From the IMG/VR virus record IMGVR_UViG_3300014039_000006: a stretch of 64,000 bases of DNA. The stretch is one strand, 5' to 3'. Origin of the DNA: a virus. Shown piece after piece: positions 4,272 through 44,713 of the stretch (positions are counted from its first letter, which is position 1; each line of letters opens with the position of its first letter). Made by a program: the position numbers and the translations under genes. The notes below the pieces were generated by a model. The model had not been told where the DNA came from. It worked only from the letters and a program-made list of their open reading frames with translations, and did no database searches.

Positions 4272-5477
4272 ATGGAAGTAAAAGAGTTTATTGATAAAAT
4301 TGCAGAAAAAACCATTGCATCTTGCAAGGATGTAAACCTGTTGCCGTCACCGTCCATTGCACAGGCAATTATAGAAAGTGCGCATGGGACCAGTCAGCTT
4401 GCGGTAGAAGCTAATGCGTTGTTTGGAATTAAGGCAGACAGTAGATGGAGTGGAAAAACGTATCAGAAATCCACAAAAGAATTTCAAAACGGACAGTATG
4501 TTGATGTTGTGGCAAAATTTCGAATGTATGATACATGGGAAGAGTCTATTGAAGATCACGCACAGTTTCTTATAAAAAACAAAAGGTATTCAAACCTTGT
4601 AGGAGTAACGGATTACAAGGAATACTGCAAGTTGATAAAGGAAGACGGATATGCTACTTCGCCTACATACATCCAAACACTTATTGATTGCATTGAAAAA
4701 TACAACCTCACGCAGTATGATACCGATGAGGACCAGGAGGAAAAGCCGAAACAACCGAAAAAGATTCGGTCATTCAATGTTCATGCTGGGCATAACCCTA
4801 GCGGCAAAGTTGCTTGCGGTTCGGTGGGTTATCTGAACGAGTCCGATGAAAACCGGAATGTCTGCAATGGATTGATTGAAAAAATCAAGAACGCCGGACA
4901 CGTAGTTTATAACTGCACCTGTGATGACGGTACAAGCCAAAAAGATGTATTGCAAAAGATTGTAGCAAAGTGCAATCAACATACGGTTGATCTTGATATT
5001 TCCGTTCACTTCAATGCCTTGTCAAAGGAATACATTTCAGACAGTAAGACAAAGGGCGTTGAGGTGTGGATTCATCCGAATAACAAGGGAAAAGAAGTTG
5101 AAAAAACTGCACAGGCAATTTGTGACAGCGTAGCCAAATTGGGATTTACAAACCGTGGCGTCAAGTATTCTGACGGTCTTTATGTTCTTAAGAACACAAA
5201 ATCTCCGGCGATGCTGATTGAGTGTTGCTTTGTAGACGATGTAGACGATTTCCAGCTTTATGAATGTTCCAAAATGGTACAGGCTATTTATGACGGTCTT
5301 TCCATTGAAACAGTGGAAGATAAGGAAGAAAAGAAGTTGTACTATGTCATTGCCGGTGTATATTCTTCGGAAGAAAATGCAAAGGCATTTGCGGAATCAC
5401 TTGCAAGCAAGGGTTACCTGATGAATGCAGACGGCAACCTCATCCGTGGAATTACAACGCAGATTAAAGAAATGTAA
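4272..5477 (+). CDS. endolysin: GH73 glucosaminidase + Amidase_3-like + SPOR-like C-terminus
   Basis: AQAIIESAHGTSQLAVEANALFGIKA (GH73 motif). HAGHN...SVHFNA (amidase). C-terminal YYVIAGVYSSEENAKAF (SPOR-like). Confidence 0.85.
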   Translation: MEVKEFIDKIAEKTIASCKDVNLLPSPSIAQAIIESAHGTSQLAVEANALFGIKADSRWSGKTYQKSTKEFQNGQYVDVVAKFRMYDTWEESIEDHAQFLIKNKRYSNLVGVTDYKEYCKLIKEDGYATSPTYIQTLIDCIEKYNLTQYDTDEDQEEKPKQPKKIRSFNVHAGHNPSGKVACGSVGYLNESDENRNVCNGLIEKIKNAGHVVYNCTCDDGTSQKDVLQKIVAKCNQHTVDLDISVHFNALSKEYISDSKTKGVEVWIHPNNKGKEVEKTAQAICDSVAKLGFTNRGVKYSDGLYVLKNTKSPAMLIECCFVDDVDDFQLYECSKMVQAIYDGLSIETVEDKEEKKLYYVIAGVYSSEENAKAFAESLASKGYLMNADGNLIRGITTQIKEM

Positions 5478-37312: not shown

Positions 37313-37325
37313 AATTTTGAATAAA

Positions 37326-37369
37326 ACCACCGCCCGGAATCGAACCGGGCAAGCACTCAATACGGTGGC
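37326..37369 (-). ncRNA. acceptor/T-arm minihelix (tRNA-like) 1
   Basis: GCCACCG-13 nt-CCCGG-UUCGAUU-CCGGG-CGGUGGU, then UUUAUU. Perfect tRNA T-loop consensus. No D or anticodon arm. Confidence 0.45.
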
Positions 37370-37482
37370 TAACGCTCAAGTTCAAAGATCGCCCAGCGCA
37401 AAGCTGCGACCGCTTCCGTGTCGTTTTCTTTCTCTGCACGCTCCAACAGGGTGTATAAGGTGTCTATCTTTTTGTTTTCCAT
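37369..37482 (-). CDS. hypothetical 37-aa ORF
   Basis: AAGGAG RBS. MENKKIDTLYTLLERAEKENDTEAVAALRWAIFELER. The TAG stop overlaps minihelix 1. Confidence 0.3.
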   Translation of the reverse strand: MENKKIDTLYTLLERAEKENDTEAVAALRWAIFELER

Positions 37483-38058: not shown

Positions 38059-38074
38059 TCCTTTCCCCTTCTAG

Positions 38075-38137
38075 CCTGTCATCATCGGAGCCGGGCGGCT
38101 GTCCCACGGCTGACGCTCCGGAGAGCGTTTCGACTAT
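38075..38137 (-). ncRNA. hammerhead-like motif HH-1 (type II topology)
   Basis: UAGUC-GAAAC-GCUC-uccg-GAGC-GUC|AGCCG-N13-CGGCU-CCGAUGA-U-GAC. Stems covary with HH-2. Confidence 0.45.
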
Positions 38138-41648: not shown

Positions 41649-42224
41649 ATGAAAATTGGGTATGTGAGAGTTTCAACAGTGGATCAGAATGAAGATCGAC
41701 AGATTGAGGGACTTGAAAAGTATGGAATTGAAAAATGGTACATGGAGAAGGTTTCCGGGAAAAACATGAACCGGGAGCAGCTACAGGAAATGCTTTCTTG
41801 CATAAAAGAAGGAGATACCGTTTATGTACATGATTTTAGCCGATTGGCAAGAAGTACCAAGGATTTATTGGAAATCGTAGAAGTCCTTAATAAAAAGGGC
41901 GTTCACCTTGTAAGTAACAAGGAAAACATTGATACGTCTACTCCACAAGGAAAATTGATGGTAACAATGCTTGCTGCAATTTACGAGTTTGAGAGAACAA
42001 ATATGCTTGAACGTCAGGCAGAGGGAATTGAAATTGCAAAGAGGAAAAAGGTTTACAAGGGAAGAAAGCCGAAAGATATTTCCAGAGAGCAGATAATTGA
42101 CGGCCTTAAGAGATACAAAGACGGACTTGTTACGAAAAAGGATCTCGCAAAGGAAATCGGGGTTTCGATTCCGACGCTTAACAAGAACTTTGACGAATTT
42201 GATCTTGGGAACAGTAAAGAATGA
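41649..42224 (+). CDS. small serine recombinase (resolvase/invertase family)
   Basis: MKIGYVRVSTVDQNEDRQ. 191 aa with a C-terminal HTH. Confidence 0.9.
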   Translation: MKIGYVRVSTVDQNEDRQIEGLEKYGIEKWYMEKVSGKNMNREQLQEMLSCIKEGDTVYVHDFSRLARSTKDLLEIVEVLNKKGVHLVSNKENIDTSTPQGKLMVTMLAAIYEFERTNMLERQAEGIEIAKRKKVYKGRKPKDISREQIIDGLKRYKDGLVTKKDLAKEIGVSIPTLNKNFDEFDLGNSKE

Positions 42225-42367
42225 AAATTTTTGGAAAAGAAATAAACGACGAATGTAAAAATTGCGGAAAGATTCTTGAATGCGAATTATTCCGTCAAGG
42301 TCACGGGATTGGCGTTGAGCGTACCAATGTATCAGAAATGGTACGATGCCAATTAGACCACTATCAA

Positions 42368-42440
42368 AGGGATATCGCCAAGCGGTAACGGCACAGGATT
42401 TTGATTCCTGTATTCGTGGGTTCGAATCCCACTATCCCCG
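42368..42440 (+). tRNA. tRNA-Gln (anticodon UUG)
   Basis: Manual cloverleaf. D arm GCC(A)/GGC, anticodon stem CAGGA/UCCUG with loop UUUUGAU, T arm GUGGG-UUCGAAU-CCCAC. The acceptor has an A1-C72 mismatch. No encoded CCA. Confidence 0.75.
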
Positions 42441-42639
42441 TTTGGGTTACTTTTTCATAGCCCATGACATTTTCTCCTTTATACGTAAACCCACTAGCGG
42501 AAAGCTGTTAAGGACCGTCACAAGGTCCGGTGGGATTCTATGGATGGTGCATTCCATAACCGTAAAGACGGACACCAAAGAAATCCTTTCTAAGTGTTAA
42601 ATGTACAGTGCCGGTTCTGATGCACGGAGCCGGTGCGCA

Positions 42640-42717
42640 TGGATAGTATGCAAACGGGTAAGCAAAAGGTCGAAAGACCGGATCAGCATTGCAAGGTTCA
42701 AGTCCTTGCCTATCCAC
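42640..42717 (+). ncRNA. tRNA-like RNA lacking an anticodon loop
   Basis: 7-bp acceptor UGGAUAG/CUAUCCA, a D-arm-like UGC-AAACGGGUAA-GCA and T arm (G)CAAGG-UUCAAGU-CCUUG(C). The anticodon arm is replaced by GGUC-GAAA-GACC. Confidence 0.55.
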
Positions 42718-42887
42718 TCTCCGTAAGGCCATACGGAGCCTAGGAGCCGGTCATAGATATGTTGCAAGCAGAAATGACGGTGAAAAACTTATATTCGTGG
42801 TGAGAAGCTAAAACGTGAGACAACATAGCCGTTTGGTAGCGAATAGCATTCTTGAAGTTTCAAATGGGTTTATAGGGGATGCCATAA

Positions 42888-43003
42888 CGGATAGTAGCTC
42901 AATAGGAAGAGCAGTATTTGAAAAATGTGTTAACAAAACACTAACAGCAATTACTTTTTTCAGGGGCGCATACGTGTTGGCGGTTCGAGTCCGTCCTATC
43001 CGA
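42888..43003 (+). ncRNA. tRNA-like RNA with about 60-nt extended arm in place of the anticodon stem-loop
   Basis: Acceptor CGGAUAG/CUAUCCG, D arm GCUC-AAUAGGAA-GAGC, T arm GGCGG-UUCGAGU-CCGUC. The arm has helices GUAU/AUAC, UGAAAAA/UUUUUCA and GUGUU/AACAC. Confidence 0.55.
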
Positions 43004-43149
43004 TTTACAACGCACACAGCAATTACAATGGACAAAACAGATAATTTTGAAACCAATAAATGCGTTGTTTTTATACAACCCTAACAGCAAACAATAATTA
43101 TTTTTCTTTGGGCAAAAATGAAAAACAAGGGTTGGGAAAGGTGAAAAAA

Positions 43150-44610
43150 ATGGAATTTTCAGAAGCAATGAGAAATGACGGGAAGTTTACAAGAACGGAA
43201 AATGGTGCTGTTGCGTTAAACACAACAGGAAATTCGTGCCTTGATCTTTTTGGAACGATAGGTTCATTAAGATGCGCTGATAAAGTAAGGATTGAAACCA
43301 TGTTTGCGGAAGCATACAAAGAAAATCCATTACTTGCTACAAAATGCGTATTTTACGCAAGAGACATTAGATGCGGTCTTGGCGAGAGAAAAACATTTAG
43401 AACACTTATTAAGTATATGGCAGAAAATCACCCAGAATCTATTCGCAATAATATTGATTTGATTGGCTTTTACGGAAGATATGATGATCTTTATTCTCTT
43501 GTCGGAACGCAACTTGAAGATGAAATGTTTTCTTCGATGAAAGATCAGTTTGAAAAAGATCTGGACTCCATGGAAAAAGGTTGCGCAGTTTCGCTTCTTG
43601 GAAAATGGATTAAAACAAGCGCAACCAGAAACAAAGACGGTAAGCAACTTGGAATTTTGACGGCTGAAAAATTAGGATATGAGAACAAAGAATTTAATAT
43701 TCTTGTTCGTAAATTACGGTCTTATATAGGGATTGTTGAAAGGGATATGTCTGCCGGAAACTGGGATAAAATTAAATATCCGGAAGTACCTAGCCGTGCA
43801 ATGATGCTTTATAGAAAAGCGTTTGAAAGACACGATGCAGAAAGATTTTCGGATTTTACAAGAAAAGCGTTATCTGGCGAAGAAAAAATCAATTCTTCTA
43901 CGCTTTACCCATATGATATTGTCGAAAAAATATTATATAGTGGAAAAAATAGTGAAGTATTAGAAGCACAATGGAAGCAACTTCCTGACTACGTGGAAAA
44001 AGGAACAAATGCTTTGGTTATGGCAGATGTATCGGGATCCATGTATGGAAGACCAATGGCAACATCAATTGGCCTTGCAATTTACTTTGCAGAGAGAAAT
44101 GTCGGTGCATATCATAATCTGTTTATGACATTTTCCAGTATGCCAAAAACAGTTGCCTTAAAGGGAGAAACGCTTGAACAGAAGATATGCAATGTGAGCA
44201 GAGCGAATTGGAGCATGAATACAGATCTTCAAGCGGCTTTCTATAAAGTCCTTGAAATTGCGAAAAAAAACAATGTTTCACGGGAAGAAATGCCAAAATC
44301 TATTATTGTTATTTCTGATATGGAAATTGATGCTTGCGGAGACGAAGACTGGTCTTTCTATGACAATACGGCAAAGAAATTTAATGAGTCCGGTTATGAT
44401 ATTCCAAACATTATTTTTTGGAATGTAAACAGCAGAAGCAATGTATTTCACGCAGATGCGGACAGAAAAGGAGTTCAAATTTGCAGCGGACAGTCAACCA
44501 CAGTCTTTAAGCAATTGATTGGTTGCATTGGCTTTACTCCGGTTGAAATGATGAAAAAAGTTTTATGCTCTGAAAGATACGAGAATATTTCGATAGTGGG
44601 GAAAGCCTAG
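43150..44610 (+). CDS. DUF2828-like protein: N-terminal helical-repeat domain + C-terminal vWA/MIDAS (Ro60/TROVE-like architecture)
   Basis: FTRTENGAVALNTTGNSCLDLFG near the N-terminus. MIDAS VMADVSGSM. 486 aa from ATG 43150. Confidence 0.7.
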   Translation: MEFSEAMRNDGKFTRTENGAVALNTTGNSCLDLFGTIGSLRCADKVRIETMFAEAYKENPLLATKCVFYARDIRCGLGERKTFRTLIKYMAENHPESIRNNIDLIGFYGRYDDLYSLVGTQLEDEMFSSMKDQFEKDLDSMEKGCAVSLLGKWIKTSATRNKDGKQLGILTAEKLGYENKEFNILVRKLRSYIGIVERDMSAGNWDKIKYPEVPSRAMMLYRKAFERHDAERFSDFTRKALSGEEKINSSTLYPYDIVEKILYSGKNSEVLEAQWKQLPDYVEKGTNALVMADVSGSMYGRPMATSIGLAIYFAERNVGAYHNLFMTFSSMPKTVALKGETLEQKICNVSRANWSMNTDLQAAFYKVLEIAKKNNVSREEMPKSIIVISDMEIDACGDEDWSFYDNTAKKFNESGYDIPNIIFWNVNSRSNVFHADADRKGVQICSGQSTTVFKQLIGCIGFTPVEMMKKVLCSERYENISIVGKA

Positions 44611-44611
44611 A

Positions 44612-44713
44612 ATGATCTTGAATTGCATAAATTGTGGCGCACCGATTGATAATACGAAAACGAAATGTCCGTATTGCGACACTCCGTATAAGTTAAATGG
44701 ATTTACTGGTTAG
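44612..44713 (+). CDS. zinc-ribbon small protein (frame stays open past its TAG to 44887)
   Basis: MILNCINCGAPIDNTKTKCPYCDTPYKLNGFTG-TAG. A further 57 sense codons follow in frame. Confidence 0.45.
   Translation: MILNCINCGAPIDNTKTKCPYCDTPYKLNGFTG

Follow-up and report, generated by a model that had tools for sequence, protein, structure and literature searches.

A conserved tRNA look-alike without an anticodon arm in a phage tRNA cluster

The 64,000-nucleotide (nt) stretch of viral DNA analysed here (IMG/VR record IMGVR_UViG_3300014039_000006, referred to as the window) is phage DNA, with genes for an SPP1-type portal, a large terminase and serine recombinases, and carries at 42640-42717 (+ strand) a 78-nt element, an anticodon-less tRNA-like RNA or mini-tRNA, recognised from its sequence, fold and homologues. 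Comparison with these homologues indicates that this tRNA look-alike, which lies in a phage tRNA cluster and cannot decode, is real and has been maintained in evolution. Its structure, the selection on its 'top half', the decay of the stub at its anticodon position, its membership of a block of structured RNAs and its persistence where a neighbouring gene cassette is absent were computed from the sequences. We tentatively propose that the element may be excised like a tRNA, in this way punctuating the processing of its neighbours, and may then persist as a stable tRNA mimic.

Architecture and conservation of the element

Read 5' to 3', the element is ordered UGGAUAG-UA-UGC-AAACGGGUAA-GCA-AAA-GGUC-GAAA-GACC-GGAUCAGCAUU-GCAAGG-UUCAAGU-CCUUGC-CUAUCCA-C. 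A 7-base-pair (bp) acceptor is formed by UGGAUAG (42640-42646) and CUAUCCA (42710-42716), next to which stands the discriminator, C42717, with no encoded CCA. The D arm (42649-42664) has a 3-bp stem (UGC, 42649-42651, with GCA, 42662-42664) around AAACGGGUAA; it is followed by a hairpin, GGUC-GAAA-GACC, at the anticodon position (42668-42679; 4-bp stem, 4-nt loop), by a single-stranded 11-nt linker, GGAUCAGCAUU (42680-42690), and by a T arm, GCAAGG-UUCAAGU-CCUUGC (42691-42709), with a canonical loop (U54 U55 C56 R57 A58). The helices named in the initial annotation, i.e. the acceptor, the D and T arms, the anticodon-position hairpin and a further hairpin at 42719-42738, are all located where it had placed them. 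Its T arm with UUCAAGU is present, but the stem is refined to 6 bp rather than 5, such that the acceptor and T stem together make a stack of 13 bp.

The D loop fits the canonical A14, R15, G18, G19 and A21 if A42652 and A42661 are taken as an unpaired fourth stem position, and the final U of the linker is assigned as Y48, facing A15. The tertiary-interaction nucleotides readable in the element are U8, A14, A15/U48, G18 G19, A21, G53-C61 and U54 U55 C56 A57 A58. The acceptor, D and T arms and the tertiary nucleotides of a tRNA are therefore all present, whereas the 5-bp/7-nt anticodon arm is not; the proposal that this is a tRNA-shaped RNA unable to decode, its anticodon arm being reduced to a stub, is borne out.

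A covariance model built on the element (R1), together with two pattern scans, gave 17 further loci. The distribution is narrow, comprising one small clade of uncultivated phages (loci L001, L081, L082, L084-L087, L209-L215 and L217-L219), the more distant relative L083, with a Ro60-like protein showing 76% identity to that of the window, and a type named after L060. A pattern scan of 185,579 species-representative GTDB genomes returned two matches, both by chance, and phage GenBank records matched, within the region, the tRNA-Gln part only.

In the close clade, 2 of the 62 columns of the top half (acceptor, D arm, linker and T arm) vary (3%), compared, in the same alignment, with 16% for the neighbouring tRNA-Gln, 12% for a long tRNA-like RNA further 3' and 11-42% for the spacers; within the ~800-nt non-coding block this is the lowest variation, shared with a middle domain at 42535-42597 (likewise 2/62). 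Between the window and L083, identity is 92% over the 3' part of the element and 80% over its 5' part, with 21-50% in the adjoining spacers. The lower variation of the top half than of tRNA-Gln and the spacers, together with the L083 identities, points to purifying selection on the top half that is no weaker than on a functional tRNA. The acceptor sequence is invariant across the clade and L083, and the linker GAUCAGCAUU is identical in L083 despite its divergent flanks; UCAGCA is also found in the L060 type.

The segment at the anticodon position is, by contrast, the least conserved part of the element, with 5 of 18 columns varying (28%). A GAAA loop occurs in the window only, close relatives having AAAA, AAAAA, AAAAAA or GAAAA; in those with GAAAA the 5' stem strand is GGUU, so that one C-G pair becomes U-G. 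The L083 version, UGGAUAGUAUUCAAGUGGGUAAGAUGAGAAGAUCAGCAUUGCAAGGUUCGAUUCCUUGCCUAUCCAA, is 67 nt long and has lost the hairpin, with retention of the acceptor, D loop, linker and T arm. The view that the GNRA-capped helix functionally replaces the anticodon arm does not survive this combination of variable columns, A-run loops and deletion in L083, and the helix is best regarded as a vestige, not as a designed module.

Compensatory changes that keep the helices, for which the initial annotation had suggested a search, are found in both of the more distant forms. A D-stem G-C pair of the window is U-A in L083, the T loop of which is UUCGAUU. The 66-nt L060-type element (L060, L076 and L150), UACAUGG...UCAGCA-GCGAGG-UGCAAAU-CCUCGC-CCAUGUA, lies at the equivalent place and differs from the window by three double changes in the acceptor (UACAUGG/CCAUGUA) and one in the T stem (GCGAGG/CCUCGC), all 13 acceptor and T-stem pairs being kept. 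An alternative pairing of AUGC (42648-51) with GCAU (42686-89) was rejected, because a G-to-U change in L083 disrupts it yet keeps the D stem.

The fold of the element exceeds chance expectation, with a minimum free energy of -22.9 kcal/mol (z = -3.0) and 1 of 200 shuffles equally good. ARAGORN, with default settings or with -ps, makes no call on the element, its sole default call being the neighbouring tRNA-Gln(UUG) at 42368-42440; when relaxed to -ps80 it reports 42641-42717 as 'tRNA-???', i.e. of unknown type, with a 2-nt 'anticodon'. The element was unmatched in Rfam at E<=10 in a 1.8-kb search. With 111 nt only, the tRNA model (RF00005) scores 18.1 bits against a cut-off of 29, aligning to positions 1-71, and the mascRNA-menRNA model (RF01684) scores 18.3 bits against a cut-off of 42.5, aligning to the T arm and part of the acceptor; these tied values are the element's top Rfam scores. 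If the anticodon arm is skipped, the tRNA model aligns with the element from end to end. Three matches in this DNA pass the Rfam gathering thresholds: the tRNA-Gln, a 'tRNA' at 42888-43003 that carries an insertion of 54 nt and, at 38070-38135 (-), a type II hammerhead ribozyme.

Assignment to other known types was also considered. ARAGORN found no transfer-messenger RNA (tmRNA), and the element holds no insert of the kind that tmRNA has. A known large RNA or ribozyme (tmRNA, RNase P RNA, GOLLD/ROOL, HDV-like, hammerhead, hatchet, pistol or twister-sister) was rejected, there being no Rfam match at E<=10 in 42441-42735. Coding open reading frames (ORFs) across the element, at 42601-42726 (+) and 42538-42732 (-), were likewise rejected, because the A-run insertions and deletions in relatives are of 1-2 nt, not multiples of three; the ORFs that gene callers place across it are, moreover, mutually inconsistent.

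Possible roles in processing and as a tRNA mimic

The element lies in a non-coding interval, 42225-43149, every neighbouring gene being on the + strand, and within it forms part of a co-oriented block made up, in order, of tRNA-Gln, a three-way-junction RNA, the middle domain, a hairpin and the element. In seven relatives (L209, L212-L215, L217 and L219), similarity extends over 42220-42885 at 89-92% identity, stops at 42885 and resumes at 44612, with ...GGAAUGCCAU leading directly to the ribosome-binding site and ATG of the gene that, in the window, lies 3' of a Ro60-like gene. Thus, 42886-44611, which contains the long tRNA-like RNA, a leader with two more ACAGCAA motifs and the Ro60-like gene, is an insertion/deletion cassette, and, on this mapping, the element is part of the RNA block and lies outside the cassette.

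RNase P, RNase Z and CCA-adding enzymes read the stack of acceptor and T arm together with the elbow, and tolerate substrates without an anticodon arm. The conserved part of the element corresponds to these tRNA-processing determinants and its decaying part is dispensable to them, which argues for a role in processing. We infer a single precursor transcript, its cleavage by tRNA enzymes, the resulting ends, CCA addition and a punctuation role for the element. The element and its block neighbours would be transcribed as one long precursor, from which the element would be cut out upon recognition of its acceptor/T stack and D/T-loop elbow by RNase P, RNase Z and the CCA-adding enzyme. A cut by RNase P at 42639/42640 would leave the upstream structured RNA with a 3' end protected by a GC-rich hairpin (42608-42636, +), which ends 3 nt before the element, and a cut after 42717 would free the downstream RNA; the released RNA of 77-78 nt would be a stable non-decoding tRNA mimic, perhaps with a further role.

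A 7-bp hairpin (CUCCGUA/UACGGAG, 42719-42738, +) begins 2 nt after the element, and at the same downstream position L083 has a hairpin of other sequence, UACCGC...GCGGUA (read by eye). A simple consensus scan from tRNA-Gln to the long tRNA-like RNA gave no + strand sigma-70-type promoter and no terminator match. Given the lack of such internal matches and the presence of the flanking hairpins, including the downstream equivalent in L083, excision of the element in a manner that sets the ends of its neighbours seems the most economical explanation. GC-rich hairpins are also present 5' of a tRNA or tRNA-like gene at several other loci, e.g. L089, L090 and L091 (by eye).

Several observations weigh against the punctuation proposal. 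The element is inside a tRNA array, so that a nearby tRNA is expected anyway. Its acceptor/T stack is of 13 bp (7+6), not the 12 bp measured by RNase P and CCA-adding enzymes, and an alternative register exists, that used by ARAGORN's relaxed call, of 6 bp, a U-C mismatch and 5 bp. The acceptor helix is missing from the minimum free energy structure of a 450-nt context fold. The covariation support for the element is thin, with all four double changes coming from the single L060 lineage, the homology of which is assumed from position and architecture. By a strict scan, 34 of 79 distinct loci have no tRNA-like element 3' of the three-way-junction RNA. Lastly, punctuation alone is not an obvious explanation for the invariance of GAUCAGCAUU and of the stem sequences shared by the clade and L083.

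The invariant linker and stem sequences suggest that the released RNA may bind a specific partner, which leaves room for a role as mimic or decoy. In such a case the element would act in trans as a tRNA mimic, decoy or sponge and titrate a host or phage factor specific for the acceptor end, T arm or elbow. Candidates are a defence toxin that cleaves or modifies tRNA 3' ends, an enzyme for tRNA modification or CCA addition, or an aminoacyl-tRNA synthetase for which the anticodon is irrelevant; such a role is compatible with tRNA-like processing, but we consider it somewhat unlikely. Phage tRNA arrays are thought to counteract tRNA-targeting defences; GAUCAGCAUU, the D loop and both stems are invariant in sequence between the clade and L083 beyond structural need, and several independent conserved mini-tRNA families, including the three-way junction with its invariant UAGCGGAAAGCUG and GUCACAA, suggest a class function. 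On the other side stand the restricted distribution of the element and the lack of an anticodon loop, because of which the best-known tRNA-directed defence nucleases cannot be the target and an anticodon-nuclease decoy is implausible. Among the roles raised at the outset, two are possible in that they fit the conserved parts: recognition, as substrate or mimic, by RNase P and by CCA-adding or modification enzymes, and service as a decoy for enzymes that read the acceptor, T arm or elbow.

An improbable explanation, in our view, is that the element is a functionless remnant, i.e. a phage tRNA gene that has lost its anticodon arm and is decaying, the apparent conservation reflecting recent ancestry of the clade. 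The stub does show length variation of the slippage type and is absent in L083, a comparable stub in L133 and L175 is clearly a tRNA-Ser deletion product, the distribution is narrow, and L220 may show a further recombination, between the element and the long tRNA-like RNA, through their shared T loop. An ordinary tRNA at this place, with no compensatory changes in the element's helices, was the outcome that the initial annotation had named as telling against its proposal; a tRNA-Met(CAU) does lie at about the same place in related loci but is not demonstrably homologous, and the element is conserved with its helices compensated. Derivation of the element by deletion from the tRNA-Met(CAU) at the same position in L048-L079 was rejected, since the alignment was without convincing homology. 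Although the L133/L175 case makes an origin by deletion plausible, the product here is conserved: its top half varies far less than tRNA-Gln or the spacers, its identity to L083 stands out from the 21-50% flanks, and the L060 type keeps every pair through four double changes, decay being confined to the stub.

The explanation at first favoured, that the element is a Y RNA of the adjacent Ro60-like protein, now appears very unlikely, also in the form of an accessory Y-RNA-like partner (cf. YrlB). Bacterial and phage Ro60 genes typically have at least one tRNA-like Y RNA upstream on the same strand, and the element is located 433 nt 5' of a gene with a predicted Ro60-like fold, on the same strand; in addition, its linker AUCAGCAUU loosely resembles the ACAGCAA module of the long tRNA-like RNAs, and, in the window alone, the stub GUCGAAAG fits the YrlA motif GNCGAAN0-1G. 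However, this GNCGAA match is not conserved, GUCGAAAG becoming GUCAAAAAG and similar A-run loops in relatives, and the linker scores at chance by an ACAGCAA weight matrix (rank ~1000/64,000), the A of the module that is invariant in 80 of 80 sequences being U in AUCAGCAUU; the element is thus not a member of the long tRNA-like family, and it has no Ro-binding stem formed by 5' and 3' ends. Furthermore, the element is absent from 77 of the 80 Ro60-like loci fetched from viral contigs and is kept in the seven relatives (~90% block identity) that carry neither the long tRNA-like RNA nor the Ro60-like gene at this site, the junction 42885/44612 being clean. The retention of the element where the cassette is absent at this site indicates that it is probably not the Y RNA of the Ro60-like protein, and also tells against a protein-binding scaffold, insofar as that suggestion had the adjacent protein in mind.

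Neighbouring RNAs, other mini-tRNAs and the Ro60-like cassette

The first gene of the block, tRNA-Gln(UUG) (42368-42440, +), is called by ARAGORN and scores 59 bits with Rfam. A hairpin, GGGUUA...UAGCCC, lies right after it (42441-42466, +); its equivalent in L083 is GGACUU...AAGUCC, the structure being kept. The three-way-junction RNA, CCCAC-UAGCGGAAAGCUG-UUAA-GGACC-GUCACAA-GGUCC-G-GUGGG (42490-42534, +; 45 nt), was identified by pattern scan and covariation. Across its family the size is 45-53 nt. An outer helix of 5 bp encloses, in order, the invariant hairpin UAGCGGAAAGCUG, an A/U linker, a 5-bp stem capped by the 7-nt loop GUCACAA, also invariant, and one G ahead of the return strand; the UAGC..GCUG hairpin is among the criteria for membership. 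The scan pattern used unpaired conserved parts only and gave at least 120 matches in viral contigs (L089-L208). Of 125 pattern matches, counted over the window and all fetched loci, 101 can form both helices, those rejected being coding-like, and at least 100 phage loci contain the RNA. Covariation is strong: in a set of 39 distinct sequences, double changes affect 9 of the 13 pairs, in 95 cells, compared with 0/500 shuffles, and the values are far lower when the pairing partners are slid; since these sequences were pre-filtered for full pairing, a value of '100% paired' is circular, but the variety of pair types is not. There was no match to the three-way-junction RNA in Rfam 15, and threading it by eye on an HDV-like or hammerhead core did not give a fit.

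The three-way junction usually occurs 36-99 nt after tRNA-Gln(UUG) and 105-270 nt before another tRNA; 3' of it, other lineages have ordinary tRNAs (Ser, Val, Lys, Met and others; 105-270 nt) or truncated tRNA-like RNAs, and a DUF2828 gene is found in 2 of the 120 three-way-junction loci listed. Variants in Ro60-like loci possess a true D arm and a UUCAAAU T loop, e.g. CCCAUC-UAGCUCAACGGAGCUG-AUUAAAG-GGGGC-UUCAAAU-GUCCC-G-GAUGGG, implying that the three-way-junction RNA is itself a mini-tRNA without an anticodon arm. The element is not a member of this family, in view of its 7-bp acceptor, larger D loop, 6-bp T stem and lack of sequence similarity.

The middle domain (42535-42597, +) is 74% identical to its L083 counterpart. 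It forms two hairpins, with compensatory changes in L083 (including UAUGGA/UCCAUA to UAUGAG/CUCAUA) and a possible loop pseudoknot of GGUG with CACC. It ends in a pyrimidine tract, AAUCCUUUCU, that is anti-Shine-Dalgarno-like; similar pyrimidine tracts flank the three-way junction at many loci. A link between the RNA block and the upstream resolvase gene was rejected, as relatives swap in a T5orf172/MUG113 gene or other ORFs, and the block stays.

Other anticodon-less tRNA-like RNAs were sought by scanning for a 7-bp acceptor and a T arm within 40-69 nt, with ARAGORN calls excluded. This gave 21 distinct sequences (62 instances) in 618 kb of Ro60-like loci, with 0 in the reversed control, and 25 distinct sequences in 995 kb of three-way-junction loci, with 4 in the reversed control. 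The 46-nt stub of L133 (~1599-1645) and L175, GCCACAA-UACCAUAAAGGAAUU-GGAGG-UUCGAAU-CCUCC-UUGUGGC, is the 82-nt tRNA-Ser(GCU) of L093, L102 and L132 minus its anticodon and variable arms; the deletion apparently arose between TTGGAG repeats, and the case shows directly how anticodon-less tRNA-like RNAs arise. L167 has a 58-nt truncated form, and L117, L188 and L193 a 65-nt form with an 11-nt loop. At L220 (2179-2256), the 5' three-quarters of the element is fused to the 3' end of the long tRNA-like RNA at a T-loop sequence that the two share, GGUUCAAGUCC, with the intervening sequence deleted; the fusion is either a recombinant phage or an assembly chimera.

It may be that the element and the three-way-junction RNA both belong to a large class of anticodon-less mini-tRNAs, so far unrecognised, that phages keep for a dedicated non-decoding job, rather than being debris of tRNA decay, although we regard so broad a reading as doubtful. 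Such RNAs may serve to divert enzymes that read the acceptor or elbow (toxins, CCA-adding and modification enzymes or synthetases), or as obligatory maturation modules.

Further unusual RNAs were observed in these phages. A conserved 51-52-nt mini tRNA-like RNA without an anticodon arm, UCCAGUACUCCACGUUGGGUGGCUAGUUACGGUUCAAGUCCGUGUACUGGAA, is present 3' of the Ro60-like gene in L048 (~4739), L054, L055 and L057-L073 (about 4630-4790). In the window itself, a 46-nt minihelix of acceptor and T arm, AGCCACCGUAUUGAGUGCUUGCCCGGUUCGAUUCCGGGCGGUGGUU, lies at 37325-37370 (-), ~700 nt from the type II hammerhead ribozyme (43.1 bits; cut-off 37) and on the same strand; minihelices of 44-54 nt resembling AGCCACCGUAUUGAGUGCUUGCCCGGUUCGAUUCCGGGCGGUGGUU occur in L139, L141, L143, L157 and L160. 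ARAGORN also reports in these phage arrays tRNAs with 4-nt (acca) or 2-nt anticodons, or with the anticodon UUA, which reads the stop codon UAA (L004 29-102, L006, L008, L012, L060 2331-2406, L066 4930-5005, L110, L119, L120, L192, L194 and L207); these odd anticodons suggest unusual decoding or further non-canonical tRNA-like RNAs.

The Ro60-like gene of the cassette (43150-44610, +) matches Pfam DUF2828 and DUF7788 and PHROG 850 ('RNA-binding protein'); ATG 43150 is taken as the true start because homologues have 483-486 residues. It is predicted to encode a protein with a Ro60-like fold, i.e. a TROVE ring with a vWA domain: the best Protein Data Bank matches of an AlphaFold2 model (predicted local distance difference test score 77) are Ro60 of Thermus phage phiLo (9l5y/9kop; E ~1e-7, template modelling score 0.54-0.60) and D. 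radiodurans Rsr (2nvo). A homology search gave at least 7,900 significant matches to the protein. The long tRNA-like RNA (42888-43003, +; Rfam tRNA, 41.6 bits) has its 54-nt insertion, a hairpin and ACAGCAA, in the anticodon arm. In its family, found as 1-5 tandem copies per locus (L001-L088), several tRNA scaffolds each have a hairpin and ACAGCAA in place of the anticodon loop; 80 of 85 distinct sequences have a CRGCRA-type motif, nearly all CAGCAA. This RNA is probably the Y RNA of the Ro60-like protein family. It is also observed 5' of a Ro60-like gene in a bacterial-looking context (L088, 1125-1231). The three ACAGCAA motifs of the cassette, ~70 nt apart on the + strand, lie in the RNA (42944-42950) and in the gene leader (43016-43022 and 43084-43090), and are conserved in L060 and L083; as putative protein-binding sites they could permit autoregulation.

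Implications and relation to known systems

Phage tRNA clusters are usually interpreted as supplies that match codon usage or counter defences, and what tRNA finders miss is ignored. The element indicates that conserved RNAs reduced to the top half of a tRNA are also to be found in such clusters; although narrow in its own distribution, it signals a much wider unannotated class. Following it exposed a three-way-junction family that is absent from Rfam 15 and present at 100 loci or more, and several families of 46-69-nt tRNA stubs, as well as a DUF2828/DUF7788 protein, present in thousands of metagenomic sequences, with a predicted Ro60-like fold and a tRNA-scaffold RNA of its own that moves with it as a cassette. 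No connection to Ro60 is drawn in papers that mention DUF2828, and we found nothing relevant in the literature on DUF2828 or on phage anticodon-less or mini-tRNAs; a 2023 catalogue of ~10,000 candidate viral structured RNAs (PMC10690425) may include some of the motifs. If the mini-tRNAs are decoys, they would represent a new layer in the conflict between phage and host over tRNAs; if they are processing modules, the principle of mascRNA and of mitochondrial punctuation would extend to phages.

The element shares with canonical tRNA (RF00005) the 7-bp acceptor, U8, the D-loop A14/G18G19/A21, a Levitt-type A15:U48, UUCAAGU and a position in a tRNA array, but differs in lacking the 5-bp/7-nt anticodon arm, in its 6-bp T stem and 11-nt linker, and in that CCA is unencoded. 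The tRNA-like domain of tmRNA likewise has an acceptor, a T arm and a D-loop analogue and no anticodon arm; in tmRNA, however, an mRNA-like/pseudoknot domain is inserted at the site of the anticodon arm, whereas the element has no insert and no G3:U70. In phages, a precedent for stable non-tRNA RNAs that are co-transcribed with tRNAs and matured by the tRNA machinery is provided by species 1 and 2 of the T4 tRNA cluster (rnaC/rnaD). The likeness to the element, by description only, lies in being embedded in a phage tRNA cluster; the function of these RNAs is, to our knowledge, unknown, and we know of no description of them as anticodon-less cloverleaves.

YrlA and phage Y RNAs resemble the element in having D and T arms that mimic tRNA, in being non-decoding, in their processing and modification by tRNA enzymes, and in their position 5' of a Ro60 gene on the same strand (PMC4201824, PMC12135203). 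In YrlA, the Ro-binding motif GNCGAAN0-1G lies in a stem formed by the 5' and 3' ends of the RNA (PMC4201824), and Ro60 of phage phiLo binds two upstream Yrl RNAs (PMC12135203). The acceptor-like stem of YrlA is capped, and the termini of the RNA lie at the Ro-binding stem, on the anticodon side; the element has an open acceptor and nothing extending from that side, no conserved Ro-binding motif, and persists in relatives without the Ro60-like gene at this site.

The proposed punctuation role is analogous to that of tRNAs in mitochondrial transcripts and, in terms of a non-decoding RNA, to that of mascRNA and its MEN-beta counterpart (RF01684; 3' ends of MALAT1 and NEAT1). There, RNase P cuts at the 5' end of mascRNA and thereby generates the mature 3' end of the preceding RNA, and mascRNA itself is set free through RNase Z and CCA addition. 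Like the element, these RNAs are non-decoding and combine a full acceptor and T arm with a reduced anticodon arm, and both mascRNA and the element lie directly 3' of a structured non-coding RNA. There are differences, notably that mascRNA is eukaryotic and nuclear, that the match of the element to RF01684 is partial and far below the cut-off, and that upstream of the element there is a hairpin only, with no sign of a MALAT1-like triple-helix 3' end. The processing that we infer for the phage RNA would nonetheless parallel that of mascRNA, in that excision of a tRNA-like RNA would define the end of the structured RNA preceding it.

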